Below, piece by piece: positions 7,975 to 27,966 of a stretch of DNA of 64,000 nucleotides. A program made the translations under genes and the position numbers. This DNA comes from an uncultured Eubacteriales bacterium (lineage in GTDB: Bacteria > Bacillota > Clostridia > Christensenellales > DTU072): assembly GCA_949292905.1 (NCBI GenBank), contig CASFAV010000006.1, positions 476-64,475 on the forward strand, read 5' to 3'. The notes below the pieces were generated by a model. It had not been told where the DNA came from, ran no database searches, and worked only from the letters and a program-made list of their open reading frames with translations. Positions within the stretch are counted from its first letter, which is position 1; each line of letters begins with the position of its first letter.

Positions 7975-8046
7975 ACGGATATATTCATTATTAAGCCCCT
8001 TATTCGTTTGCTATATACATTCGGGTGGGGTATAATCTATGCATAA
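7975..8046 (+). promoter_or_regulatory. arg operon promoter with overlapping ARG-box-like sites
   Basis: TTGCTA(8008)-17 bp-TATAAT(8031). GTATAATCTATGCATA, TATATACAT and TATATTCAT resemble ArgR boxes or half-boxes. Confidence 0.55.
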
Positions 8047-8074
8047 ACCAACTCAACCTACGGAGGCACATATC

Positions 8075-9304
8075 ATGGCTGACAAAAAGATAAAGAAAAT
8101 AGTTCTCGCGTATTCCGGCGGACTGGATACTTCGATAATAATTCCCTGGCTCAAAGAGAATTACGACGATCCCGAGATAATAGCGGTATCGGGCGACGTG
8201 GGACAGGGCACCGAGCTCGACGGGCTCGAGGAGAAAGCCATCAAAACGGGCGCGAGCAAGTTATACGTAGCGGACCTCAAAGAGGAATTCGTCAAGGATT
8301 ACGTATTCCCCACCCTCAAAGCGGGCGCTAAATACGAAGGCGATTACCTTCTGGGAACCTCTTTCGCCCGCCCGATAATAGCAAAAAGGATAGTGGAGAT
8401 CGCGCTTCAGGAAGGCGCCGACGCCATCTGCCACGGTTGCACCGGAAAGGGCAACGACCAGGTGCGTTTCGAGCTCACGATCAAGGCTTTCGCGCCCGAG
8501 ATGAAGATAATCGCTCCCTGGCGTATATGGAACATCAAGAGCCGCGAAGAGGAGATCGACTACGCCGAAGCTCACAATATCCCGCTCAAGATCAACCGCG
8601 AGACCAATTACAGCAAGGACAAGAACCTGTGGCATCTTTCGCACGAAGGACTCGATCTCGAAGATCCCGCCAACGAGCCGCAGTACGATAAACCCGGATT
8701 CCTCGAAATGGGCGTAAGTCCTTTCGCGGCGCCGGACAAACCCACCTACGTCACGATATCCTTCGTGAAGGGCGAACCCGTAGCCGTCGACGGCGAGAAG
8801 CTCTCTCCCGTGGCTATCGTAGAAAAACTTAATGCCCTGGGCGGCGCCAACGGCATAGGTCTTGCGGACATAGTGGAGAACAGGCTCGTCGGAATGAAAT
8901 CCCGCGGCGTGTACGAAACTCCCGGCGGCACGATCCTTTACCGCGCGCACGAAGTTCTCGAAACGCTCTGCCTCGACCGCGACACCGCGCACTATAAAGC
9001 GCTCGTCGCTCAGCAGTACGCCGAGCTCGTGTATTTCGGCAAGTGGTTCACCCCTCTGCGCGAAGCGCTCCAGGCGTTCGTCGACAAGACTCAGGAGAAC
9101 GTGACGGGCGACGTGAAGCTCAAGCTTTACAAGGGCAACATAATCAATGCCGGCACCACTTCGCCGTACTCGCTGTACAATCCCGAATTCGCCACTTTCG
9201 ACGAAGACGACGTGTACGATCAGAAGGATTCCGCAGGCTTCATCAACCTCTTCGGACTTCCGATCACGGTGAAGGCGCTTATGGATAAAGCGAACAAAAA
9301 ATAG
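8075..9304 (+). CDS. argG: Argininosuccinate synthase
   Basis: [34 protein letters not shown]. Start chosen after the GGAGG RBS. Confidence 0.97.
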
Positions 9305-9340
9305 CAATAATTCGTAGCTATGGCTACATAAGGAAGGTAT

Positions 9341-10720
9341 ATGGCTAATTTATGGTCGGCAAGGTTCTCCAAGGAACTCGACGCCGCGGTCAACGATTTC
9401 AACTCGTCGATAAAGGTCGACGGGTTGATGTATAAAGAGGATATCGAGGGAAGTATCGCTCACGCGAAGATGCTCGGAGCCTGCGGCATAATCCCCGCGG
9501 AGGACGCGGAAGCGATAGTATCCGCGCTTGCGGATATCCGTAAGGAAATAACTTCGGGCAAGCTCGTCATCGATCCCGAAGCGGAGGACATACATATGTT
9601 CGTCGAGGGCGAGCTTACGAAAAGGCTTCCCGAGGCGGGTAAACGCCTGCATACGGCGAGGAGCCGTAACGATCAGGTGGCGGTAGACGCAAGGCTTTAC
9701 CTCAGGGCGAAAACGGACGAACTCGTCGCGGCGGTGAAAAAGCTCGTCGAAGCGCTTTACGAAGTCGCTGAGAAGAACACCGCTACCGTGATGCCCGGAT
9801 ACACTCATCTTCAAAGAGCGCAACCCGTTACTCTCGCGCATCATCTCGCGGCGTACTGCGCCATGTTCATGCGCGACGCTTCCCGTCTTAAAGACTGCCG
9901 CAAGCGTATGAACGTTTCGCCTTTGGGCTCGGGAGCGCTTGCGGGCACGACTTATCCCATCGACAGGAGAATGACGGCGGAGCTTTTGGGATTCGACGGT
10001 ATTTCTTTCAACAGCATGGACGGCGTCAGCGACCGCGATTATCAGGTGGAGCTCGCTTCCGCCGCGGCGCTCATAATGACGCATTTGTCGCGCCTGTCGG
10101 AGGAGATAATTCTGTGGTGCTCGTGGGAATTCAGATTCGTGGAGCTCGACGACGCCTATTCCACCGGTTCGTCGATAATGCCGCAGAAGAAGAACCCCGA
10201 CATAGCCGAGCTCGTGCGCGGCAAGACCGGCAGGACTTACGGCGATCTCATTACGCTGCTCACCATGCTCAAAGGCATTCCGCTAGCGTACAACAAGGAT
10301 ATGCAGGAGGATAAAGAGGCGATATTCGATTCTGTGGAAACGACGCTTGCCTGCCTTACGCTTTTCGCGCCGATGCTCCTCACGATGAAAGTAAACGCGG
10401 ACAATATGGCAAAAGCGGCGCTCAAAGGCTACATCAACGCTACCGACCTTGCCGATTATCTCGCGAAGAAGGGTCTGCCTTTCCGCGCGGCTTATAAAGT
10501 TTCGGGGACTCTCGTCGCCGAATGCGTGAAGCGCGGTATCGCGCTCAACGACCTTACTTTGGACGAGCTCAGGAAAGAGAGCGGACTTTTCGAGGAAGAC
10601 GTTTACGAAGCTATATCCCTCGAAACCTGTCTCAACAAGCGTACTTCCGAAGGCGCGCCTTCGGAGGAGGCGGTGGCGAAGCAACTCTGTATCATAAAGG
10701 AGTTCCTCGATGAGCATTAA
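9341..10720 (+). CDS. argH: Argininosuccinate lyase
   Basis: HTARSRNDQ, GYTHLQRAQP, GSSIMPQKKNPD. Confidence 0.97.
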   Translation: MANLWSARFSKELDAAVNDFNSSIKVDGLMYKEDIEGSIAHAKMLGACGIIPAEDAEAIVSALADIRKEITSGKLVIDPEAEDIHMFVEGELTKRLPEAGKRLHTARSRNDQVAVDARLYLRAKTDELVAAVKKLVEALYEVAEKNTATVMPGYTHLQRAQPVTLAHHLAAYCAMFMRDASRLKDCRKRMNVSPLGSGALAGTTYPIDRRMTAELLGFDGISFNSMDGVSDRDYQVELASAAALIMTHLSRLSEEIILWCSWEFRFVELDDAYSTGSSIMPQKKNPDIAELVRGKTGRTYGDLITLLTMLKGIPLAYNKDMQEDKEAIFDSVETTLACLTLFAPMLLTMKVNADNMAKAALKGYINATDLADYLAKKGLPFRAAYKVSGTLVAECVKRGIALNDLTLDELRKESGLFEEDVYEAISLETCLNKRTSEGAPSEEAVAKQLCIIKEFLDEH

Positions 10721-11657
10721 GGTTTACATAGACGGCAGGGAGGGCACCACCGGGCTCAAGATATACGAGCGCCTCGGCGCGAGAGAGGATATCGAACTCC
10801 TTTACATACCCGACGAATACAGGAAAGACCCCGTCGCGCGTAAAGAATACATCAACGGAAGCGATATAACCTTTCTGTGCCTTCCGGACGCGGCGGCGAG
10901 GGAAGCCGTGGCTCTTGCAGGGGACAGGGTACGCATTATAGACGCTTCGACCGCTCATCGCGTTTCGCCCGGTTGGGCATACGGATTTCCGGAATTGGGA
11001 GCCCGTTTCAGAGAAAACATTGCTTCGGGCAAAAGAATAGCCGTTCCCGGCTGTCACGCGAGCGGCTTTATCGCGCTCGTGTATCCGCTCGTAAAGCTCG
11101 GCTTTATGAGCCCCGATTTTCCGGTGTGCGCGACTTCGCTGACGGGCTATTCGGGAGGCGGCAAGAAGATGATAGCCGCTTACGAAGGAGAGCGCGGCGC
11201 GGAGTACGACGCGCCGAGAATGTACGGCATAGGTCAGACTCACAAGCATCTTCCCGAAATGCGCGCCGTATGCGGGCTCGATAAAGCTCCCGTATTCCTG
11301 CCTATAGTGAGCGACTATTATTCGGGCATGGAAGTGATACTGCCTCTCGATCTCACCTGCCTGAAGGGCGTGGCTTCCGCGGACGAACTTCGCGGGATAT
11401 ATAAGGATTTTTACGCGGGCGCGGGACTTGTCAAGGTCCAAGACGCGGGCGCGGAGGGCGCTTCGGGCGGGGGATTCGCGGCGGCGAATAAGCTCTCCGG
11501 CAGGGACGATATGGAGATCTACGTCGCGGGGAGCGACGAACGCGCCGTGGCATACGCCGTTTTCGACAACCTCGGTAAAGGCGCTTCGGGAGCGGCGGTA
11601 CAGAATATGAACATAATGCTCGGTTTGGACGAGAAAAAAGGATTGATAACGGAATGA
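10710..11657 (+). CDS. argC: N-acetyl-gamma-glutamyl-phosphate reductase (type 2)
   Basis: IDGREGTTGL, DASTAHR, PGCH, GYSGGGK, DNLGKGASGAAVQN. Confidence 0.95.
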   Translation: MSIKVYIDGREGTTGLKIYERLGAREDIELLYIPDEYRKDPVARKEYINGSDITFLCLPDAAAREAVALAGDRVRIIDASTAHRVSPGWAYGFPELGARFRENIASGKRIAVPGCHASGFIALVYPLVKLGFMSPDFPVCATSLTGYSGGGKKMIAAYEGERGAEYDAPRMYGIGQTHKHLPEMRAVCGLDKAPVFLPIVSDYYSGMEVILPLDLTCLKGVASADELRGIYKDFYAGAGLVKVQDAGAEGASGGGFAAANKLSGRDDMEIYVAGSDERAVAYAVFDNLGKGASGAAVQNMNIMLGLDEKKGLITE

Positions 11658-12886
11658 ATACTAACGGTAACGGTATCGAATTTATATCGGGCGGCGTAGT
11701 CGCCGCCAAAGGTTTCAGAGCGACGGGTATACACGCGGGTATCCGCAAGAACAAGACGAAAAAGGATCTCGCGCTCATCATGGCGGACAAGCCCGTTTCT
11801 GCGGCGGCGGTCTACACCCGCAACCTCGTGAAAGGCGCTCCGCTCACGGTCACCGCGGAACATCTTAAAAACGGTCGCGCGCAGGCGATAATATGCAACA
11901 GCGGCAACGCCAATACCTGCAACGCGGACGGCATAGAGATAGCGGAAGCCACCTGCGATATACTCGCGGAAGCGGCGGGAATAGCGGCGGACGACGTGAT
12001 AGTGGCGTCCACGGGAGTGATAGGTCAACCGCTTTCCATAGAGCCTTTCAGGAAGGGCATACCGCTTCTCGTCGAAGCGCTCGGCGCGGATTCCGCGGGA
12101 GCGAACGAAGCCATAATGACCACCGACACGGTCATCAAGGAAGTCGCCGTGAAATTCACGCTCGGCGGCAAGGAATGTCATATCGGCGGCATAGCGAAAG
12201 GTTCGGGAATGATACATCCGAACATGGCGACGATGCTCGTATTCGTCACCGCCGACGCGGCGATATCTCCCGCGATCCTTGCCGAGATCGTGCGTAAGGA
12301 CGTCGTCACCTCTTTCAATATGGTATCGGTAGACGGCGACACTTCCACCAACGACATGCTCGCCGTAATGGCTTCCGGAGAAGCGGGCAACGCGGAAATT
12401 ACGGAGTATAACGAGGACGCGGAGAAGTTCGCGGAAGCGTTCGGCGTAGTGACGCGCGCGCTTTGCCGTAAGATAGCCGCCGACGGAGAAGGCGCAACAA
12501 AGCTCATCGAATGTAAGGTTTCGGGAGCCCGTAACGACGAAACGGCGCGCGTAGTCGCCAAGAGCGTCATCACGAGCTCGCTTATCAAGACCGCCATGTT
12601 CGGCGCGGACGCGAACTGGGGCAGGGTGCTTTGCGCGATAGGCTACGCGGGCACGGACACCGATATAAATAAAGTCGGAGTCGTTTTCCGTTCCGAAGCC
12701 GGCGCGGCGGAGGTATGCCGCGACGGACACGGCGTCGATTTCAGCGAGGAGCTTGCCAAGAAGGTGCTTACCGAAAAGGAAATAATCATAGACATTACTT
12801 TAGGCGACGGCGACGGCGAAGCCGTGGCGTGGGGCTGCGACCTCACTTACGAATATGTGAAAATAAACGGAGATTACCGCACCTGA
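11654..12886 (+). CDS. argJ: Ornithine acetyltransferase / N-acetylglutamate synthase
   Basis: NSGNANT, KGSGMIHPNMATML, DGDTSTND, DGEGATK, INGDYRT. Confidence 0.96.
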   Translation: MNTNGNGIEFISGGVVAAKGFRATGIHAGIRKNKTKKDLALIMADKPVSAAAVYTRNLVKGAPLTVTAEHLKNGRAQAIICNSGNANTCNADGIEIAEATCDILAEAAGIAADDVIVASTGVIGQPLSIEPFRKGIPLLVEALGADSAGANEAIMTTDTVIKEVAVKFTLGGKECHIGGIAKGSGMIHPNMATMLVFVTADAAISPAILAEIVRKDVVTSFNMVSVDGDTSTNDMLAVMASGEAGNAEITEYNEDAEKFAEAFGVVTRALCRKIAADGEGATKLIECKVSGARNDETARVVAKSVITSSLIKTAMFGADANWGRVLCAIGYAGTDTDINKVGVVFRSEAGAAEVCRDGHGVDFSEELAKKVLTEKEIIIDITLGDGDGEAVAWGCDLTYEYVKINGDYRT

Positions 12887-12908
12887 GGGGCGGAATATCG
12901 GAGGGAAT

Positions 12909-13760
12909 ATGAAACTTACCAACGAAGGAAAAGCGGAAATACTCGTACAGGCGTTGCCGTACATTCAGAAGTATTACGACCAGATAGTAGTCGTCAAGTA
13001 CGGCGGCAACGCGATGATCGACGAAGATCTCAAAAAAACGGTCATGCGCGACCTCGTTCTGCTCGCGCAGATAGGGGTCAAGGTGGTGCTCGTGCACGGT
13101 GGAGGACCGGAGATAACGGAAACGCTCGCGAAGATGAATATTGAATCGAAATTCGTGGACGGATTGCGCGTTACGGACCGCGAGCAGATCGACGTCGTGC
13201 AGATGGTGCTCGCGGGGAAGGTCAATAAGGATCTCGTCGCGCTCATCGGTAGCGCGGGCGGTAAGGCGATAGGACTGTGCGGCATAGACGGCGGAATGAT
13301 AGAAGCGCGCCCCGTAAGCAAGGCGCTCGGCTTCGTGGGGGAAGTGGTTTCCGTGGACACGAAGCCCGTTCTCGACGCTCTGAACGCAGGTTACATTCCC
13401 GTCATATCCTCGCTCGGTTACGACAAAGAGGGCAACGTTTACAATATCAACGCCGACACGGCGGCTTCGCGCATAGCGGGCGAACTGAAAGCTTCCTCTT
13501 TCATCAACATGACCGACATCAAGGGAATACTCGAAGATCCCGCCGACGAGAATTCGCTCATTAAGGAAGTCAACGCTTCCGAAGCGCTCGAACTTATCCG
13601 TGACGGAGTTATTTCGGGGGGCATGATACCGAAGGTGAAATGTTGCGTCGAAGCCATACGCCGCGGCGTGAAAAAAGTTTTCATCATCGACGGCAGAGTG
13701 CCGCACGCGATACTCATCGAAGTGCTTTCCGACGAAGGCATAGGCACGATGTTCTATTGA
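12909..13760 (+). CDS. argB: Acetylglutamate kinase
   Basis: VKYGGNAM, HGGGPEI, GLRVTD, YNINAD, GGMIPK. Confidence 0.96.
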   Translation: MKLTNEGKAEILVQALPYIQKYYDQIVVVKYGGNAMIDEDLKKTVMRDLVLLAQIGVKVVLVHGGGPEITETLAKMNIESKFVDGLRVTDREQIDVVQMVLAGKVNKDLVALIGSAGGKAIGLCGIDGGMIEARPVSKALGFVGEVVSVDTKPVLDALNAGYIPVISSLGYDKEGNVYNINADTAASRIAGELKASSFINMTDIKGILEDPADENSLIKEVNASEALELIRDGVISGGMIPKVKCCVEAIRRGVKKVFIIDGRVPHAILIEVLSDEGIGTMFY

Positions 13761-13780
13761 TATAAGGAAAGGAGAAAGCG

Positions 13781-14683
13781 ATGAAACATTTACTTAAACT
13801 TGCCGATCTTACTTCCAAAGAGATAATCGACCTTCTCAACATGGCGGATCAGCTCAAATTCGAGAAGAAGAACGGCATCGATCACCCTCATCTTAAAGGC
13901 AAAACTCTCGGAATGATATTCACCAAAGCCTCCACGCGTACCCGCGTTTCTTTCGAAGTGGGTATGTATCAACTGGGCGGCAACGCGCTTTTCCTGAGCG
14001 GCAACGACATGCAGATAGGCAGGGGCGAACCCGCCGAAGACACCGCGCGCGTGCTTTCCAAATACCTCGACGGTATCATGATACGCACTTACGAGCAGAG
14101 CGAAGTGGAGAAGCTCGCGGCTTTCGGCACGATACCCGTCATCAACGGGCTTACCGATTACTGCCATCCCTGCCAGGTGCTCGCCGACCTTATGACGATA
14201 AGGGAATTCAAAGGCAGCTTCAAAGGAAAGAAACTTTGCTTCGTGGGCGACGGCAACAATATGGCGAATTCGCTTATCGTAGGCTGTATCAAAGTGGGTA
14301 TGAATATATCGATTGCGTGCCCCAAAGGCTACGAACCGGATGCCGAACTTATCAAATGGGGATACGAATCCGGTAAATTACTGATAACCGACGACGTACG
14401 TAAGGCGGCGGAAGGCGCGGACGTATTGTACACCGACGTGTGGGCGAGCATGGGACAGGAAGCGGAAGCCAAAGCGCGCCGCGCGGCGTTCAAGGGCTTC
14501 TGCATAGACTCGGAACTCATGAAGGCGGCAAACCCCGGCGCCATGGTACTGCATTGTCTTCCCGCGCACCGCGGCGAGGAGATAACCGCCGAGGTGCTGG
14601 AGGCGCACGCCAAAGAAATATTCGAGGAAGCCGAGAACCGTATGCACGCGCAGAAAGCGGTCATGGTCACCCTTATGAAATAA
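13781..14683 (+). CDS. argF: Ornithine carbamoyltransferase
   Basis: STRTR, HPCQ, SMG, HCLP, EAENR. Confidence 0.96.
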   Translation: MKHLLKLADLTSKEIIDLLNMADQLKFEKKNGIDHPHLKGKTLGMIFTKASTRTRVSFEVGMYQLGGNALFLSGNDMQIGRGEPAEDTARVLSKYLDGIMIRTYEQSEVEKLAAFGTIPVINGLTDYCHPCQVLADLMTIREFKGSFKGKKLCFVGDGNNMANSLIVGCIKVGMNISIACPKGYEPDAELIKWGYESGKLLITDDVRKAAEGADVLYTDVWASMGQEAEAKARRAAFKGFCIDSELMKAANPGAMVLHCLPAHRGEEITAEVLEAHAKEIFEEAENRMHAQKAVMVTLMK

Positions 14684-14713: not shown

Positions 14714-15778
14714 ATGAAGAGATACATAGTACTTGAGAACGGCAAAATTTTCGAAGGCGAAGCGTTCGGCGCCGACGGAACGGCTATGGGCGAAACGGTA
14801 TTTTCCACGGGAGTGGTGGGATTTACCGAAACGCTCACCGATCCCAGTTATTACGGGCAGATAGTGGTACAGACTTTCCCCACGATAGGTAACTACGGGA
14901 TAATGTACGACGATATGGAGTCCGACAAGATATGGCCGGAAGCGTACGTCGTGCGCGAATACTGCAAAGCGCCTTCCAATTTCCGTATGGACACGGACGT
15001 GGACAGCTTCCTTAAAAAATACGGTACGGTAGGCGTATGCGGCGTGGACACGCGCGCGCTTACGAGAATTATCCGCGAATCCGGCGTAATGAACGCGGTC
15101 GTGACGGACGATCCACGGAGCGTCGATTTCAAGAAACTTTCCGAATACCGCATCGTGAACGCGGTGAAGGCGGTCACGGAGAGCAAGAAGGAATTTTATT
15201 TACCCGAAGGCGAACCGGTGTGCAAGGTCGCGTTGTACGATTACGGCGCCAAACGCAATATCATAAGGTCGCTTCTGAAGCGCGGTTGCGCGGTGACGAG
15301 CTATCCCGCGTTCACGCCCGCAGAGGAAGTGCTCGGGGACGATCCGGACGGTATAATGCTTTCCAACGGTCCCGGCGATCCTGCGGAAAACAAGGAAATA
15401 ATAGCGATAGTGAGAGATCTGCTCGGCAAGAAGCCGCTTTTCGGTATTTGTTTGGGGCACCAGCTCACGGCGCTCGCCACGGGCGGCAAGACCGTCAAAC
15501 TCAAGTACGGTCATCGCGGCGGCAACCAGCCCGTTAAAGACCTTAAGAGCGGCAGAACCGTGATCACCTCGCAGAATCACGGTTACGCCGTGGACGGCGC
15601 GTCGCTCAAAGAGGGTACGGTAAGCCATATCAACGTGAACGACGGTACCTGCGAAGGCGTCGTATATCCGGAGCTCGACGCGCAGACGGTGCAATTCCAT
15701 CCCGAAGCGTGCGCGGGTCCCAAGGATATGGAAGGCTTATTCGAGCAATTCATACGCAGGATGACGGAGGATAAATAG
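14714..15778 (+). CDS. carA: Carbamoyl-phosphate synthase small subunit
   Basis: TDPSY, LSNGPGDP, GICLGHQ, QFHPEA. Confidence 0.96.
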   Translation: MKRYIVLENGKIFEGEAFGADGTAMGETVFSTGVVGFTETLTDPSYYGQIVVQTFPTIGNYGIMYDDMESDKIWPEAYVVREYCKAPSNFRMDTDVDSFLKKYGTVGVCGVDTRALTRIIRESGVMNAVVTDDPRSVDFKKLSEYRIVNAVKAVTESKKEFYLPEGEPVCKVALYDYGAKRNIIRSLLKRGCAVTSYPAFTPAEEVLGDDPDGIMLSNGPGDPAENKEIIAIVRDLLGKKPLFGICLGHQLTALATGGKTVKLKYGHRGGNQPVKDLKSGRTVITSQNHGYAVDGASLKEGTVSHINVNDGTCEGVVYPELDAQTVQFHPEACAGPKDMEGLFEQFIRRMTEDK

Positions 15779-15779
15779 T

Positions 15780-18700
15780 ATGCCCCTTGACAAACGGATC
15801 AAAAAGGTACTCGTAATAGGTTCGGGACCTATAGTTATAGGACAGGCGGCGGAATTCGATTACGCGGGCACGCAGGCTTGCCGCGTGCTGAAGGCGGCGG
15901 GCATCGAAGTGGTGCTCGTCAATTCCAACCCCGCGACGATAATGACCGACAAGGCGCTCGCCGACGAAATTTATCTCGAACCGCTCACGTTGGAGACGGT
16001 CAAGCGTATCATCGTCAAGGAAAAGCCGGACAGCATACTCGGTACGTTGGGCGGACAGACGGGGCTGACGCTTTCGATGCAACTCGAAAAAGAAGGATTT
16101 TTGAAGGCGCACAACTGCAGGCTCATAGGCACCAACGCCGAAGCGATATGCAAAGCGGAGGACAGGGAGCTGTTCAAAGAAACTATGCAGAGCATCGGAC
16201 AGCCCTGTATACCTTCCGACATCGCCAACGAACTTTCGGAAGCGCTCGCGGTGGCGAAGCGCATAGGATATCCCGTCATCATACGTCCCGCGTTCACGCT
16301 GGGCGGTAACGGCGGCGGAGTGGCGTACAACGAGGAGGAACTCCGTTCGGTCGCGGCGACCGGACTTGACGTTTCGCCGATACATCAGGTGCTTGTAGAA
16401 AGATATATTTACGGTTGGAAGGAGATAGAATTCGAGACGATGCGCGACGCTATCGGCAACGCGATAGCGGTGTGCAGTATGGAGAACGTGGATCCCGTGG
16501 GCGTGCATACCGGCGACAGCATAGTGGTGGCGCCCGCGCTTACTCTTTCCGACAGAGAATACGAGATGCTGCGTTCCGCTTCCCTGGACATAGTGGCGGC
16601 GCTCGGCATCGTGGGCGGCTGTAACTGTCAGTACGCGCTCAATCCCGACTCGATGGAATACGCCGTTATCGAAGTGAACCCCCGCGTGTCGCGTTCGTCA
16701 GCGCTTGCGAGCAAGGCTACCGGCTATCCCATAGCGAAGGTTTCCACGAAAATAGCGCTCGGCTACACGTTGGACGAGATACCCAACGAGGTGACGGGCA
16801 AGACCTGCGCCTGCTTCGAACCGGCGATAGACTATATCGTGTGCAAGTTCCCGAAGTGGCCCTTCGACAAATTCGTATATGCCTCGCGCACTCTCGGCAC
16901 GCAGATGAAGGCGACGGGAGAGGTGATGAGTATCGGCTCCAATTTCGAGTCCGCGATAATGAAAGCGGTACGCGGCGCGGAGATAGGGCTCGACACCCTC
17001 AACGCCGGGGGCTACGACGGTAAAGACGTCGAAGCGATGCTGAAGAACATGGACGACTTAAGGCTTTTCACCGTCTTCCGCGCGATCAAGGAAGGGATAT
17101 CCCTGGACAGGATATTCGAGATAACCCGCATAGACCGCTTCTTCCTCAACAAACTCAAGAACCTTGTCGACTACGAGAAGGCGATAGAAGGTAAAGCGAT
17201 AGACGAAGAAACGTATCTCAAAGGCAAACGCTACGGATATACCGATAAAGCTATCGAACGCATAAGCGGACACAAGGTTCCCGTTCACCGCGATCCGGTA
17301 TACAAAATGGTCGATACTTGCGCCGCGGAATTCGACGCGGAGACGCCGTATTTCTACGCCGCGTACGACGAGGAGAACGAGGCTTTGGAGCACGTCGACC
17401 GCAACAAAAAGACGATACTCGTTCTGGGTTCGGGACCGATAAGGATAGGACAGGGCATAGAGTTCGACTATTCGAGCGTGCACTGCGCGTGGTCTATAAA
17501 GAAGTTGGGCTACGACGTCGCGATAGTCAACAACAACCCCGAAACCGTTTCCACCGATTTCGACGTGGCGGACAGGCTTTATTTCGAGCCTCTGACTCCT
17601 GAGGACATCGACGGCATACTCGCCGTGGAGAAGCCCGTAGGCGTAGTGGTAGCTTTCGGCGGTCAGACCGCCATCAAGCTCACCAAGCATCTCGACGGGA
17701 TAGGCGTTAAGGTCATGGGTACTTCCGCCGACTCGATAGACGCCGCCGAGGACAGAGAGCGTTTCGACGCCCTGCTCGAAAAGGTCAATTTCAAACGCCC
17801 CAAGGGCTTTGCCGTGACGAGCATTCAGGACGCCGTATCGGTAGCCAACGAGCTCGGCTATCCCGTGCTCGTGCGCCCTTCCTACGTTATCGGCGGGCAG
17901 AATATGACGATAGCGTATAACGATTTCGACGTCGAGGAATATATGAACATAATCCTCGCTCAGCACATCGATAACCCCGTGCTCATCGACAAGTACCTTA
18001 TGGGAACGGAGCTCGAAGTGGACGTCATAAGCGACGGTAAGGACGTGCTTCTGCCGGGCATAATGCAGCACGTGGAGCGCGCGGGCATACACAGCGGCGA
18101 TTCGATAGCGGTGTATCCTCCCTACAATATCAACGACGTGATGCGCGAAAAGATAGTGGACTGTTCGACTCGTCTCGCGCTTCTTCTGGGCACTCGCGGA
18201 CTCGTCAATATCCAGTACGTCATATACGAGAACGAGCTTTACGTCATCGAAGTCAATCCCCGCGCTTCGCGCACGATACCTTATATAAGTAAGGTGACCG
18301 GTATCCCCATGGTGGATATCGCCACGCGGATAATGCTCGGCGAAAACCTCGCGGATATGGGATACGGCACGGGACTTGCCAAGACCATTCCCTACGTTAC
18401 CGCGAAAGTGCCGGTATTCTCGTTCGAGAAGCTCAGCAACGTCAACTCCATTCTCGGACCGGAGATGAAATCTACGGGCGAAGTGCTCGGCATAGGTAAG
18501 ACCTTGCAGGAAGCGTTGTTCAAAGGACTCGTTTCGGCGGGCTTCAAGCTCAAGAGCGAGAAGGAAAACCGCGGCGTGTACATTTCGGTGCGCGACGTGG
18601 ATAAGTACGACGCAGTGAAACTCGCCAAGAAATTCATGGACGTGGGCGTCACGATATACGCGACGAAAGGCACCGCCGACGCTATCAAGGGGCTCGGTAA

Positions 18701-19796
18701 CGACTTCGTGCTCGTCCGCGACGACGATATCTACAAGTACCTTGAGGACGGCAAGATAGATTTCATAGTCAACACCTGCCCCAACACCCGTTCGTACATC
18801 GACGCTCACACTAAACTGCGCACCCGCGCGTTGCAATTGGGTATCGCGTGCATGACTTCTCTCGATACGGCGAACGCGCTTGCGGACATACTGGCGTCGA
18901 GATTCACGGAGCGCAACACGGAGCTCGTCAACCTCAACAAGATGCGTAAAGAAAAGTTGAAGATAAACTTCGTCAAAATGCAGTCTTTGGGTAACGACGG
19001 CGTTTATCTCAACAATTTCAACGGCGAAATAGTCTGCCCGGAGAGTATGGCGATACTGTTCTCGGACCGCAACTTCGGTATAGGCAGTAACGGGCTCGCG
19101 GTGATAGGCAAGTCCGACGTAGCCGACGCTAAAATGGAGATCTACAATAAGGACGGAAGCGACGGCAGAACGTCCGGCACTTCGCTGATATGCTCCGGCA
19201 AGTTCCTCTACGACAACGGCATAGTTCCGAAAACTACCATGACGATAGAGACTCTTTCCGGAATAAGACAACTCACGCTGTTCCTTTCGGACGGCAAGGT
19301 GTCCGGAACGAGCGCGGATATGGGTAAGCCCATCCTTGAGCCGAAGGACATACCCTGTTCGCTCGACGGCGACGCCGTCATAGACAGAGCGGTCAGATTG
19401 CGCGGCAAGGAATACCGCGTCACCTGCCTGTCGCTCGGCAACCCGCACATGGTGACTTTCGTGGACAGGGTGGACGACGTGGATCTAGCGAAGACGGGCA
19501 CGGCATTCGAATACGCTCCCTTCTTCCCCGACAGGGTGAACGCCGAATTCGTGCGCGTCGTCAATCCGAATACGCTCAAACTGCGCGTGTGGGAGCGCGC
19601 CAACGGCGAAGTTCTCGCTTCCGGTACCGGAGCGTGCGCGGCTGTGGTGGCGGCGGTCCTTAACGGCTATTGCGAGCGGGGCGCGGACGTTACGGTCAAG
19701 ACGCGCGGCGGCGACGTGGTGGTCAATTACGACGGCGAAAGAGTGGTGATGACGTCGAGCGCGAATCTCGTGTTCGAAGGCGTGATCAGGTTGTAA
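15780..19796 (+). CDS. carB: Carbamoyl-phosphate synthase large subunit fused to a C-terminal DapF-fold domain
   Basis: GSGPIVIGQAAEFDY, two ATP-grasp halves and an MGS domain. From about residue 1060 it reads FVKMQSLGND...DRNFGIG...SLGNPH...RVWER, as in diaminopimelate epimerase. Confidence 0.93.
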   Translation: MPLDKRIKKVLVIGSGPIVIGQAAEFDYAGTQACRVLKAAGIEVVLVNSNPATIMTDKALADEIYLEPLTLETVKRIIVKEKPDSILGTLGGQTGLTLSMQLEKEGFLKAHNCRLIGTNAEAICKAEDRELFKETMQSIGQPCIPSDIANELSEALAVAKRIGYPVIIRPAFTLGGNGGGVAYNEEELRSVAATGLDVSPIHQVLVERYIYGWKEIEFETMRDAIGNAIAVCSMENVDPVGVHTGDSIVVAPALTLSDREYEMLRSASLDIVAALGIVGGCNCQYALNPDSMEYAVIEVNPRVSRSSALASKATGYPIAKVSTKIALGYTLDEIPNEVTGKTCACFEPAIDYIVCKFPKWPFDKFVYASRTLGTQMKATGEVMSIGSNFESAIMKAVRGAEIGLDTLNAGGYDGKDVEAMLKNMDDLRLFTVFRAIKEGISLDRIFEITRIDRFFLNKLKNLVDYEKAIEGKAIDEETYLKGKRYGYTDKAIERISGHKVPVHRDPVYKMVDTCAAEFDAETPYFYAAYDEENEALEHVDRNKKTILVLGSGPIRIGQGIEFDYSSVHCAWSIKKLGYDVAIVNNNPETVSTDFDVADRLYFEPLTPEDIDGILAVEKPVGVVVAFGGQTAIKLTKHLDGIGVKVMGTSADSIDAAEDRERFDALLEKVNFKRPKGFAVTSIQDAVSVANELGYPVLVRPSYVIGGQNMTIAYNDFDVEEYMNIILAQHIDNPVLIDKYLMGTELEVDVISDGKDVLLPGIMQHVERAGIHSGDSIAVYPPYNINDVMREKIVDCSTRLALLLGTRGLVNIQYVIYENELYVIEVNPRASRTIPYISKVTGIPMVDIATRIMLGENLADMGYGTGLAKTIPYVTAKVPVFSFEKLSNVNSILGPEMKSTGEVLGIGKTLQEALFKGLVSAGFKLKSEKENRGVYISVRDVDKYDAVKLAKKFMDVGVTIYATKGTADAIKGLGNDFVLVRDDDIYKYLEDGKIDFIVNTCPNTRSYIDAHTKLRTRALQLGIACMTSLDTANALADILASRFTERNTELVNLNKMRKEKLKINFVKMQSLGNDGVYLNNFNGEIVCPESMAILFSDRNFGIGSNGLAVIGKSDVADAKMEIYNKDGSDGRTSGTSLICSGKFLYDNGIVPKTTMTIETLSGIRQLTLFLSDGKVSGTSADMGKPILEPKDIPCSLDGDAVIDRAVRLRGKEYRVTCLSLGNPHMVTFVDRVDDVDLAKTGTAFEYAPFFPDRVNAEFVRVVNPNTLKLRVWERANGEVLASGTGACAAVVAAVLNGYCERGADVTVKTRGGDVVVNYDGERVVMTSSANLVFEGVIRL

Positions 19797-20356: not shown

Positions 20357-21763
20357 ATGATAACGCTTCTTATTATATGCCTGATCAGGGCGTTGCTTTT
20401 CAAGCCGAAAGCTAAAGCCGCCCGAAAACCCGAAGCAGTCGAATTCGACCGCGATAAAGCGGTGAACGATTTGAGAGAGCTTATCCGCATCAAGACGGTA
20501 AGCTATAACGACGTTGCGGACGAAGACGCCGCGGAATTCGAGAAACTGCGCCTGAAACTCAAAGAATTGTTCCCCGAAGTGCATAGAACCGCCACTCTTG
20601 AGCGTATCCCGCCGAAGGGGCTGTTATACAGATGGAAGGGGAAGAGCGAAGCGGAACCCACCGTGCTCATGGCGCACTACGACGTAGTGCCCGCGGACGA
20701 ATCGCGTTGGACGCGCCCCGCGTTCGAGGGTATCGTCGAAGGCGAAACGCTGTGGGGCAGGGGAACGCTCGATACCAAAGGCACGCTGAACGGGATATTG
20801 CAGGCGGCGGAAAAACTTATCAAAGAAGGCTTCGTGCCCGAACACGATATATATTTCGCGTTCGCGGGCGACGAGGAGACCGCCGGCGAGAGCGCTCCCA
20901 ACATAGTATCCGAACTGGAGCGCAGAGGTATCAAGCCCGCGCTCGTGGTGGACGAAGGCGGCGCGGTCGTCGAGAAGGTATTCCCCGGCGTGAAGGAGCG
21001 TTGCGCCGTGATAGGTATCGCCGAGAAGGGTATCACCAACATAAGATACACCGTCTTGAGCAACGGCGGACACGCTTCCACCCCTCCGAGACATACGCCG
21101 GTGGGCGTACTGTCGGCAGCCTGCAATAAGGTCGAGAACAATCCCTTCCCCGCGCGTCTTTCGGTACCCGCGCTCAAGATGTTCGACGCGCTCGGCAGGC
21201 ACAGCACCTTCGTTTACAGGCTGATATTTGCCAATCTGTGGCTCTTCAAGCCGTTGCTCGCGGCAATGGGCGCGAAGTCCGGCGGCGAGATGAACGCGCT
21301 CATGCGCACGACCTGCGCGTTCACCATGATGGAGGGAAGCGACGTTTACAACGTCATCCCCGCCAAAGCCACGATGACGAGCAATCTGCGGATAATAAGC
21401 GGCGAAACGATAGACTCTACCGTCGATTATCTCAGGAAAGTCATCGACGACGAAAACGTGAAGATAGAAGTTATCAACGGGTCCGAACCGTCGGTGGTTT
21501 CCTCCACGGACTGCGCGGGCTACGCCAAGCTTGCCGAAACGGTATCTGAAGTTTTCCCCGACGCCATAGTCGCGCCGTATCTGATGATCGCCTGCTCCGA
21601 TTCCCGCCATTACGGCAGAATATCCGACAAGGTGTACCGCTTCTCGGCGATGGCGATGAGCTCCGAGGAGAGGAAAATGGTGCACGGCAACGACGAGCGC
21701 ATCACCTTCCGCGGCATCTGGGAAGCGGTGGAATTCTATATAAGACTCATCAAGAAATGCTGA
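20357..21763 (+). CDS. M20-family metallopeptidase/amidohydrolase
   Basis: MAHYDVV, GRGTLDTK, DEE, DEGG, GGHAS, HGNDE. Confidence 0.9.
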   Translation: MITLLIICLIRALLFKPKAKAARKPEAVEFDRDKAVNDLRELIRIKTVSYNDVADEDAAEFEKLRLKLKELFPEVHRTATLERIPPKGLLYRWKGKSEAEPTVLMAHYDVVPADESRWTRPAFEGIVEGETLWGRGTLDTKGTLNGILQAAEKLIKEGFVPEHDIYFAFAGDEETAGESAPNIVSELERRGIKPALVVDEGGAVVEKVFPGVKERCAVIGIAEKGITNIRYTVLSNGGHASTPPRHTPVGVLSAACNKVENNPFPARLSVPALKMFDALGRHSTFVYRLIFANLWLFKPLLAAMGAKSGGEMNALMRTTCAFTMMEGSDVYNVIPAKATMTSNLRIISGETIDSTVDYLRKVIDDENVKIEVINGSEPSVVSSTDCAGYAKLAETVSEVFPDAIVAPYLMIACSDSRHYGRISDKVYRFSAMAMSSEERKMVHGNDERITFRGIWEAVEFYIRLIKKC

Positions 21764-27384: not shown

Positions 27385-27966
27385 ATGACCAACAACAGTA
27401 AGATGTCCAACTGCGGCAGTCCCGACAAGAATTATTCCGGCGCAAACGGCTCCGGCAGATCGTCCGCGCGCGGCGCGAGGAATTCCGTGAACGGCAAAGC
27501 GGGCGCGAGAATGGAAGCCGCCGAAGAAAGCGGTCGCGGTTCTTCCGCACAGAATTGCTCGAACTCGGCACAGAACCGTTCGGGCGCGGCACAGAATTGC
27601 TCGAACTCCGCACAAAACTGCTCGAACTCGGCACAGAACCGTTCGGGCGCGGCACAGAACCGTTCGGGCGCGGCACAGAATTGCTCGAACTCGGCACAGA
27701 ACCGTTCGGGCGCGGCACAGAATTGCTCGAACTCCGCACAAAACTGCTCGAACTCGGCACAGAATTGCTCGAATTCCGCACAGAACTGTTCTAACTCGGC
27801 TACGAAAGGCGCTACTTCGAGAATGGAAGCAGCGGAAAGCGATTCTTCCTCTTCCGGGAAAGCGCTCAACCGTTACAAATGCAAGAACTGCGGCGCCATA
27901 CACGAAGGCGCAAGCGCACCGAAGAGCTGTATGAAATGCGATTCCGAGGAGTTCAGGAAGATCTGA
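27385..27966 (+). CDS. Low-complexity Asn/Ser/Ala/Gln/Cys heptad-repeat protein with C-terminal rubredoxin-like CxxC...CxxC
   Basis: Strong RBS AGGAGG; 12 heptads; tail YKCKNCGAIHEGASAPKSCMKC resembles the rubrerythrin rubredoxin domain. Confidence 0.75.
   Translation: MTNNSKMSNCGSPDKNYSGANGSGRSSARGARNSVNGKAGARMEAAEESGRGSSAQNCSNSAQNRSGAAQNCSNSAQNCSNSAQNRSGAAQNRSGAAQNCSNSAQNRSGAAQNCSNSAQNCSNSAQNCSNSAQNCSNSATKGATSRMEAAESDSSSSGKALNRYKCKNCGAIHEGASAPKSCMKCDSEEFRKI
27547..27798 (+). repeat. 12 x 21-bp in-frame tandem repeat with two unit types
   Basis: Eight units encode AQNCSNS and four encode AQNRSGA (GCACAGAACCGTTCGGGCGCG). Confidence 0.95.

Follow-up and report, generated by a model that had tools for sequence, protein, structure and literature searches.

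A carbamoyl-phosphate synthetase of a clostridial arginine operon carries a DapF-fold domain with serine at both catalytic cysteine positions

The large subunit of a carbamoyl-phosphate synthetase (CPS) from an uncultured Eubacteriales bacterium ends in a domain with the fold of diaminopimelate (DAP) epimerase (DapF) in which both catalytic cysteines are replaced by serine, and this domain is held under purifying selection. From the comparisons below, we consider that the domain has about an even chance of being a non-catalytic ligand-binding module that regulates the attached CPS. The DNA analyzed, referred to here as the window, is a stretch of 64,000 nucleotides (contig CASFAV010000006.1, positions 476 to 64,475). 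The fusion gene and its parts are as follows.

15780 to 19796, plus strand: carB::dapF-like fusion gene, 1338 aa, with the CPS large subunit at aa 1-1040 and the DapF-fold domain at aa 1061-1338
18612 to 18857, plus strand: MGS-like allosteric domain, aa 945-1026, from comparison with E. coli CarB
18960 to 19796, plus strand: DapF-fold domain, a complete two-lobed fold, from profile match, structure alignment and predicted model
18999 to 19190, plus strand: span with lineage-specific changes near the catalytic sub-site (G1074, N1104, T1134 and I1137), from alignment
19146 to 19598, plus strand: span with the retained L-amino-acid recognition residues N1123, N1221, N1254, E1272 and R1273 (N66, N164, N197, E215 and R216 of 9mro)
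19173 to 19175, plus strand: S1132 (TCC), first catalytic cysteine position (C73 of E. coli, C75 of 9mro), from structure-based alignment
19620 to 19622, plus strand: S1281 (TCC), second catalytic cysteine position (C217 of E. coli, C224 of 9mro), from structure-based alignment
19755 to 19757, plus strand: S1326, a further lineage-specific change, from alignment

The gene is a single open frame. Residues 1-1040 matched TIGR01369 with 1386.8 bits (cut-off 1027) and contain two ATP-grasp halves and all CPS domains, and residues 1062-1336 gave a full-length match to TIGR00652 of 212.8-213.9 bits (cut-off 114.65). The AlphaFold2 model of the fused DapF domain had a pLDDT of 97.2, and its best match among DapF structures was the inhibitor-bound 9mro (TM 0.94, rmsd 1.5 A). 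A sequence-only reading of this DNA had described the CarB C-terminus as a DapF-fold domain with both catalytic cysteines changed to serine in an otherwise intact fold. The profile and structure matches bear out the first point, and the TCC codons at 19173 and 19620 do align with the catalytic cysteines of 2otn, 9mro, and 3ejx. The fold is indeed intact, but the serines are not the sole active-site changes, as five more are present in 10 of 10 Ser/Ser sequences. In a single-chain predicted model of aa 540-1338 (the CPS C-half plus the domain, 799 aa), the pTM of 0.79 weakly suggests that the DapF domain would have a fixed placement on the CPS C-half. A search of proteins clustered at 50% with the domain returned DapFs and fusion fragments only, a search of the ESM Atlas returned DapF clusters only, and no Ser/Ser structure was recognized among the DapF structures matched to the fused domain.

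We then compared the active-site residues. The DapF site consists of a catalytic and a recognition sub-site, as described for the C. glutamicum and Anabaena enzymes in PMC5296763 and PMC12039745, from which the residue roles used here were taken. The five recognition (distal-site) residues were invariant in all 10 Ser/Ser sequences and strongly conserved in the Ala/Cys sequences, and the catalytic sub-site of the fused domain retains N1072, G1133, G1282, and T/S1283. The five additional changes, Y/F to G1074, D to N1104, N to T1134, R to I/V1137, and G to S1326, were each found in all 10 Ser/Ser sequences; at position 1134, the other 54 fusions all have N. The equivalent of this residue is the proximal-site N85 of C. 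glutamicum DapF, for which PMC5296763 reports that N85A nearly abolishes activity. Positions D1104 and R1137 changed jointly in the Ser/Ser sequences and in G185/G261, which may represent a lost salt bridge. In the 14 Ala/Cys sequences of the clade described below (mean identity 56%), polar positions had a conservation of 0.95 in the pocket and 0.61 elsewhere (0 of 100000 permutations), and in the Ser/Ser sequences, the two values were 0.96 and 0.80 (p=0.017). The DapF fold does not require this pocket, since the pocket of the DapF-fold protein HisR, as PMC11602996 describes it, is without a basic residue. For position 1275 (S to N/I), the counts relative to first-cysteine loss were 34/37 versus 2/27, but the covariation was not significant on independent pairs, and co-evolution of the two positions was dropped.

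The fusion gene is the last member of an operon with the order argG-argH-argC-argJ-argB-argF-carA-carB, whose upstream genes are as follows.

8039 to 9304, plus strand: presumably argG, named from a sequence motif
9341 to 10720, plus strand: argH, arginine operon upstream of carA
10710 to 11657, plus strand: argC, arginine operon upstream of carA
11654 to 12886, plus strand: argJ, arginine operon upstream of carA
12909 to 13760, plus strand: argB, arginine operon upstream of carA
13781 to 14683, plus strand: argF, arginine operon upstream of carA
14714 to 15778, plus strand: carA, CPS small subunit, TIGR01368 over cut-off

argD lies outside this arginine operon (8039-14683), on another contig; most operons of the Ala/Cys clade include argD. 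Two genes downstream of carB is a gene for an M20-family peptidase (PF01546, the family of ArgE/DapE; 20357-21763, plus strand). A 193-aa ORF at 27385-27966 on the minus strand contains numerous short tandem repeats in which S, A, Q, N, and C are abundant; after these, at the C-terminus, comes a CxxC...CxxC segment that we take to be rubredoxin-like.

The genome is 99% complete. It contains a second, unfused carB within a pyrB-pyrC-carA-carB-pyrD-pyrF cluster, a lysA-like gene with a score just below the cut-off, and a separate DapF of 263 aa with both cysteines, encoded directly before dapL (L145:9970-11935, G000:C16); a profile search for Ddh gave no match in this genome. The sequence-only reading had left it to be seen whether a separate intact dapF or ddh exists, and the Cys/Cys dapF beside dapL answers this. 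From that dapF and the carB of the pyrimidine cluster, we infer that the fused protein is the arginine-pathway CPS and that its domain would be dispensable for meso-DAP. The 263-aa DapF lacks about 15 residues before its N-x-E motif and evolves quickly genus-wide. The idea that it is fast because the fused domain took over was unsupported, as members of the genus without the fusion have the same short, long-branched DapF.

CarB-DapF fusions, which had been surmised to exist in databases for some Clostridia, proved to be common in that class. They were found in 65 distinct genomes (22 of 61 relatives and at least 44 of 300 class-wide genomes), all with open frames, which rules out an assembly or frame artifact of one genome; a one-genome error is also ruled out by the Ser/Ser state of 68 of the 120 best long homologues and by the Ser/Ser fusions carried by 10 of 22 genomes of the same genus. 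The states in 64 aligned fusions were Cys/Cys (27), Ala/Cys (16), Ser/Ser (10), Gly/Cys (7), Ser/Cys (3), and Gly/Ser (1), so that 27 of the 64 keep both cysteines and 37 do not; the fusion of G312, outside this alignment, is Ala/Cys. All 10 Ser/Ser genomes have full-length open frames, at 72-98% identity. The long-homologue search, restricted to proteins of 735-2342 aa, gave 3570 matches among 7994 scored candidates, and 68 of the best 120 of these were Ser/Ser, including many near-identical strains, the others being Ala/Cys (44), Gly/Cys (4), and Cys/Cys (4). A scan of GTDB loci gave 3 Ser/Ser fusions and 57 Cys/Cys among 60 readable of 80 loci. One UniRef label starts with 'Multifunctional f', so automatic annotation sees the fusion. 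A literature search, with most subscription journals outside its coverage, found no description of a CarB-DapF fusion. Other long DapF-domain proteins of 687-1046 aa were also observed (L122 of G270, P0190, P0212, P0259, and P0269), and that of G270 has no CarB part. In G247 (L120), a Cys/Cys carB::dapF fusion has a further dapF, this one standalone, directly behind it, and then dapL.

Furthermore, all 37 genomes with a non-Cys/Cys fusion have another meso-DAP route, namely, a second DapF gene (24) and/or Ddh (24). Neither was found in five genomes, all with Cys/Cys fusions (Fisher p=0.011, with kin not independent and G047 51% complete). The first batch of second DapFs that was read, including those of all 10 Ser/Ser genomes, was Cys/Cys; a motif search of 14 further second DapFs read the first cysteine in 13 and the second in 9. 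In 13 tabulated genomes, the sole full DapF match is a non-Cys/Cys fusion, and all of these genomes have Ddh.

The order of changes was followed on trees. On quick trees with 14 unfused CarBs as outgroup, which carried a long-branch warning, all fusions formed one branch (SH-aLRT 100), with Cys/Cys forms basal. Cys/Cys fusions often occur in a gltB-glnA-carA-carB context, with dapL downstream within the locus in 9 of 26 loci, which suggests that read-through in a carB-dapF-dapL operon gave rise to the fusion. The first cysteine changed at least 8 times on the CPS-half tree and 7 times on the full-length tree (60 sequences), and the second changed twice; a single origin of first-cysteine loss was rejected (p-AU 0.0006). 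The 10 Ser/Ser sequences are nested in a clade of 24 that both the body tree and the domain tree support; its remaining 14 members are Ala/Cys. The first cysteine was therefore probably lost first: it likely became Ala, and a later step turned this Ala and the second cysteine into Ser. The symmetric double change read from the single sequence was thus probably a two-step one. The sister of the Ser/Ser sequences is that of G034 (Ala/Cys), and holding the 14 Ala/Cys sequences together was weakly rejected (p-AU 0.03). Within the clade, the domain is retained across 13 families, and arginine genes are present in the locus for 18 of 24 members (most misses being short contigs) versus 2 of 37 other loci examined. 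In G055, the arginine-clade CarB stops exactly at the fusion junction, without the domain and with argF next (L244:1-4057, L071); this genome also carries a separate, degenerate Cys/Ser DapF-like gene.

In the MGS-like domain of the fused CarB, at the UMP/IMP effector site, K993 of E. coli CarB is replaced by D and 994-998 are deleted, with the equivalents of S948, T977, and T1042 retained. The residue roles were taken from PMC6245113, where K993 is described as crucial to UMP binding in E. coli CPS and dimer formation as dependent on the regulatory domains. The motif GRxPx[RK]D[SD]V of the nucleotide site was absent from all 24 clade members and present in 38 of 40 other fusions, and the K993 column had K in 3/24 versus 40/40. 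Loss of the UMP site is expected anyway in an arginine-specific CPS, and the loss of the motif fits a possible shift of regulation. Outside the arginine clade, 13 fusions also lack the first cysteine, and the motif is mostly intact there, so the two losses are not coupled.

Selection on the domain was measured as dN/dS (Nei-Gojobori) for 7 closely related pairs selected out of the 45 that the 10 Ser/Ser genomes form. The values were 0.017-0.078 for the domain (bootstrap upper bounds of at most 0.12), 0.013-0.054 for the CPS body, and 0.12-0.33 for the separate Cys/Cys DapF. The sequence-only reading had named neutral evolution as what would speak for simple decay; the domain instead evolves like the CPS body, and neutral decay in the Ser/Ser lineage is refuted. 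Over all 45 Ser/Ser pairs, many of the distant ones with saturated dS, the ratio of domain to body dN was 1.5, equal to that of the Cys/Cys genus g98. The domain/body rate ratio was 3.2 in g112 (Gly/Cys) and 3.5 in g131 (Ala/Cys), compared with 1.5-2.1 in three Cys/Cys genera and 0 in a fourth; the domain is partly relaxed in g112 and g131. Of the conserved positions, 15 of 101 in the domain and 18 of 532 in the body had changed in all 10 Ser/Ser sequences (p=4e-5), and the domain changes on the branch to the Ser/Ser genus cluster around the first catalytic helix. The serine pair is fixed in all 10 genomes, though the codons vary. These patterns point to a burst of change in the Ser/Ser genus, then fixation. 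In genus g23 (G043 and G312), the domain is kept and its pocket is decaying; G312 has the equivalents of N1123K, N1221S, N1254H, E1272D, and R1273K. Purifying selection, the separate Cys/Cys dapF, and the kept DAP recognition residues together refute simple decay and favor the retained pseudo-enzyme that had been proposed from the sequence, although Ser/Ser alone does not prove inactivity.

Two serines do not by themselves mean an inactive enzyme, since natural DapFs that carry serine at both catalytic positions are reported to be active, and Ser-to-Cys is reported to inactivate the Anabaena enzyme (PMC13728532 citing Lamer 2025, J Mol Biol 437:169375). We therefore collected standalone counterparts with a DNA pattern scan of metagenomes, which gave at least 120 loci; since M-S-G-N was fixed by the pattern, the Asn that follows the serine is uninformative in this set. 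Among these loci (L280-L399), 119 DapF-like frames were read, of which 56 were Ser/Ser, 11 were Ser/Cys, 49 were without the second site, and 3 were misaligned; 56 of the 70 listed matches with both sites covered were Ser/Ser. Standalone Ser/Ser and Ser/Cys DapF-like genes are plentiful in metagenomes and fall into several distinct sequence types. Four unforced positions were near-invariant in the standalone Ser/Ser proteins, an aromatic residue at 1074 (55/55), D1104 (56/56), R1137 (56/56), and G1326 (54/54), where the fused domain has G, N, I/V, and S. The standalone Ser/Ser proteins found are ~24-35% identical to the fused domain, and one clade of fused and standalone Ser/Ser sequences was rejected (p-AU 0.0036; with 15 of the 56 standalone sequences and 5 of the 10 fused ones). 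By these comparisons, the fused domain appears unrelated to the standalone Ser/Ser DapFs found in metagenomes, and the differences would lower the chance that it is active. It shares with the natural Ser/Ser DapFs known via PMC13728532 a serine at both catalytic positions of the DapF fold but differs from the metagenome set, which may not be the family assayed by Lamer 2025, in that the latter forms a separate clade and keeps Y/F, D, R, and G. In a class-wide DapF search around G358 for cyanobacterial Ser/Ser second copies, 1 of 151 genomes had two full matches.

According to the trees, the domain would have arisen from one fusion in a carA-carB-dapF-dapL operon, giving a bifunctional Cys/Cys protein; the arginine-operon branch would then have lost the first cysteine to Ala, and in the Ser/Ser genus, both this Ala and the second Cys would later have become Ser, with a remodeled catalytic sub-site that was then held fixed. 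Under the regulatory reading, the domain likely no longer epimerizes DAP but likely still binds an amino acid, either DAP itself or one of the arginine pathway, and this putative binding would tune the attached synthetase. The low dN/dS, the pocket conservation, the redundancy of the meso-DAP route, the loss of the MGS motif, and the burst followed by fixation speak for this reading. Also relevant are the closure of DapF on its ligand described in PMC5296763 and the activation of RppH by DapF, for which epimerase activity is described as not required (PMC6061791, PMC13728532). The pocket decay in g23, the domain loss in G055, the uncoupled losses of cysteine and MGS motif, the relaxation in g112 and g131, the non-significance of position 1275, and the active Ser/Ser DapFs speak against it. 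It is possible, though on the doubtful side, that regulation of the arginine CPS was swapped throughout the 13-family clade, with the MGS nucleotide site lost and the silenced DapF acting as an effector-binding domain that links the supply of carbamoyl phosphate to the pools of DAP or of the arginine pathway; in the Ser/Ser genus, the pocket would then have been adapted to a different ligand, or a serine dyad enzyme would have arisen anew and independently.

An unlikely but serious candidate is that, after fusion, the CPS came to depend on the domain to fold, remain stable, or assemble into oligomers, with the pocket kept by lag or packing rather than for a ligand. The retention of the domain in G043 and G312 despite pocket decay would agree with this, as would purifying selection across the whole domain, the dimerization of DapF (PMC6061791), the reliance of the E. 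coli CPS dimer on regulatory domains that are remodeled here (PMC6245113), and the precedent of yeast URA2, whose dihydroorotase-like domain is defective (PMC11818841); however, pocket polar residues are conserved far above other polar residues in Ala/Cys sequences of 41-56% identity, and the clade member G055 does without the domain altogether. That the two serines form the acid/base dyad of an active epimerase or racemase, acting on DAP or another amino acid after catalysis was regained from an Ala/Cys ancestor, appears quite unlikely. The reported activity of natural Ser/Ser DapFs and the loss of activity on Ser-to-Cys in Anabaena (PMC13728532 citing Lamer 2025), the fixed serines with varying codons, the abundance of standalone Ser/Ser DapFs (56/70), and the retention of most substrate-contact residues would allow it, but the nearest relatives have Ala at the first catalytic position, N1134 is T where N85A nearly abolishes C. 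glutamicum activity (PMC5296763), the four positions near-invariant in standalone Ser/Ser proteins are changed, a common clade with these is rejected, and a separate Cys/Cys dapF is kept in 10 of 10 genomes. That a redundant epimerase domain is decaying neutrally and awaits deletion is highly improbable: cysteine loss is indeed confined to genomes with another meso-DAP route, and decay in g23 and loss in G055 are visible, but it is countered by the dN/dS of 0.017-0.078 with its low upper bounds, the 10 of 10 full-length frames, and retention over 13 clade families.

Compared with known systems, the domain resembles DapF (TIGR00652, PF01678; 2otn, 9mro, 3ejx, and 5m47) in its predicted fold, distal-site residues, and GN/GT helix caps, whereas it is Ser/Ser rather than Cys/Cys, has N77 to T and F15 to G among other changes (9mro numbering), sits on CarB, and occurs in a genome with another DapF. 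The CPS part resembles CarB (TIGR01369, NF003671; 1a9x) in having all CPS domains over cut-off, an adjacent carA, and an arginine operon, but has an extra C-terminal domain of 278 aa, a shortened MGS loop around K993, and no nucleotide-site motif. In yeast URA2 (CPS-ATCase), too, a CPS polypeptide retains an enzyme domain with defective catalysis (PMC11818841), although of another fold and pathway; here, the domain is terminal and derives from lysine synthesis. In E. coli DapF-RppH (6d13, 5ygu), the DapF fold likewise serves as a non-catalytic activator of another enzyme, but in that case, the DapF is standalone and active, and its target in trans is a Nudix hydrolase. A pseudo-enzyme domain on a CPS is an already known kind; the DapF-derived domain, a likely variant of that kind, is real and under selection.

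The fused domain passes the DapF equivalog cut-off, so that 13 genomes, all with Ddh, would be credited with an epimerase that is probably absent. If the domain is active, it would be an independent origin of a serine-dyad epimerase. If it is a sensor, it would be an undescribed way of regulating CPS, and the fusions would provide, as Cys/Cys, Ala or Gly/Cys, Ser/Ser, decayed, and deleted forms, a natural series leading from an enzyme to a regulatory domain, with 7-8 independent starts.
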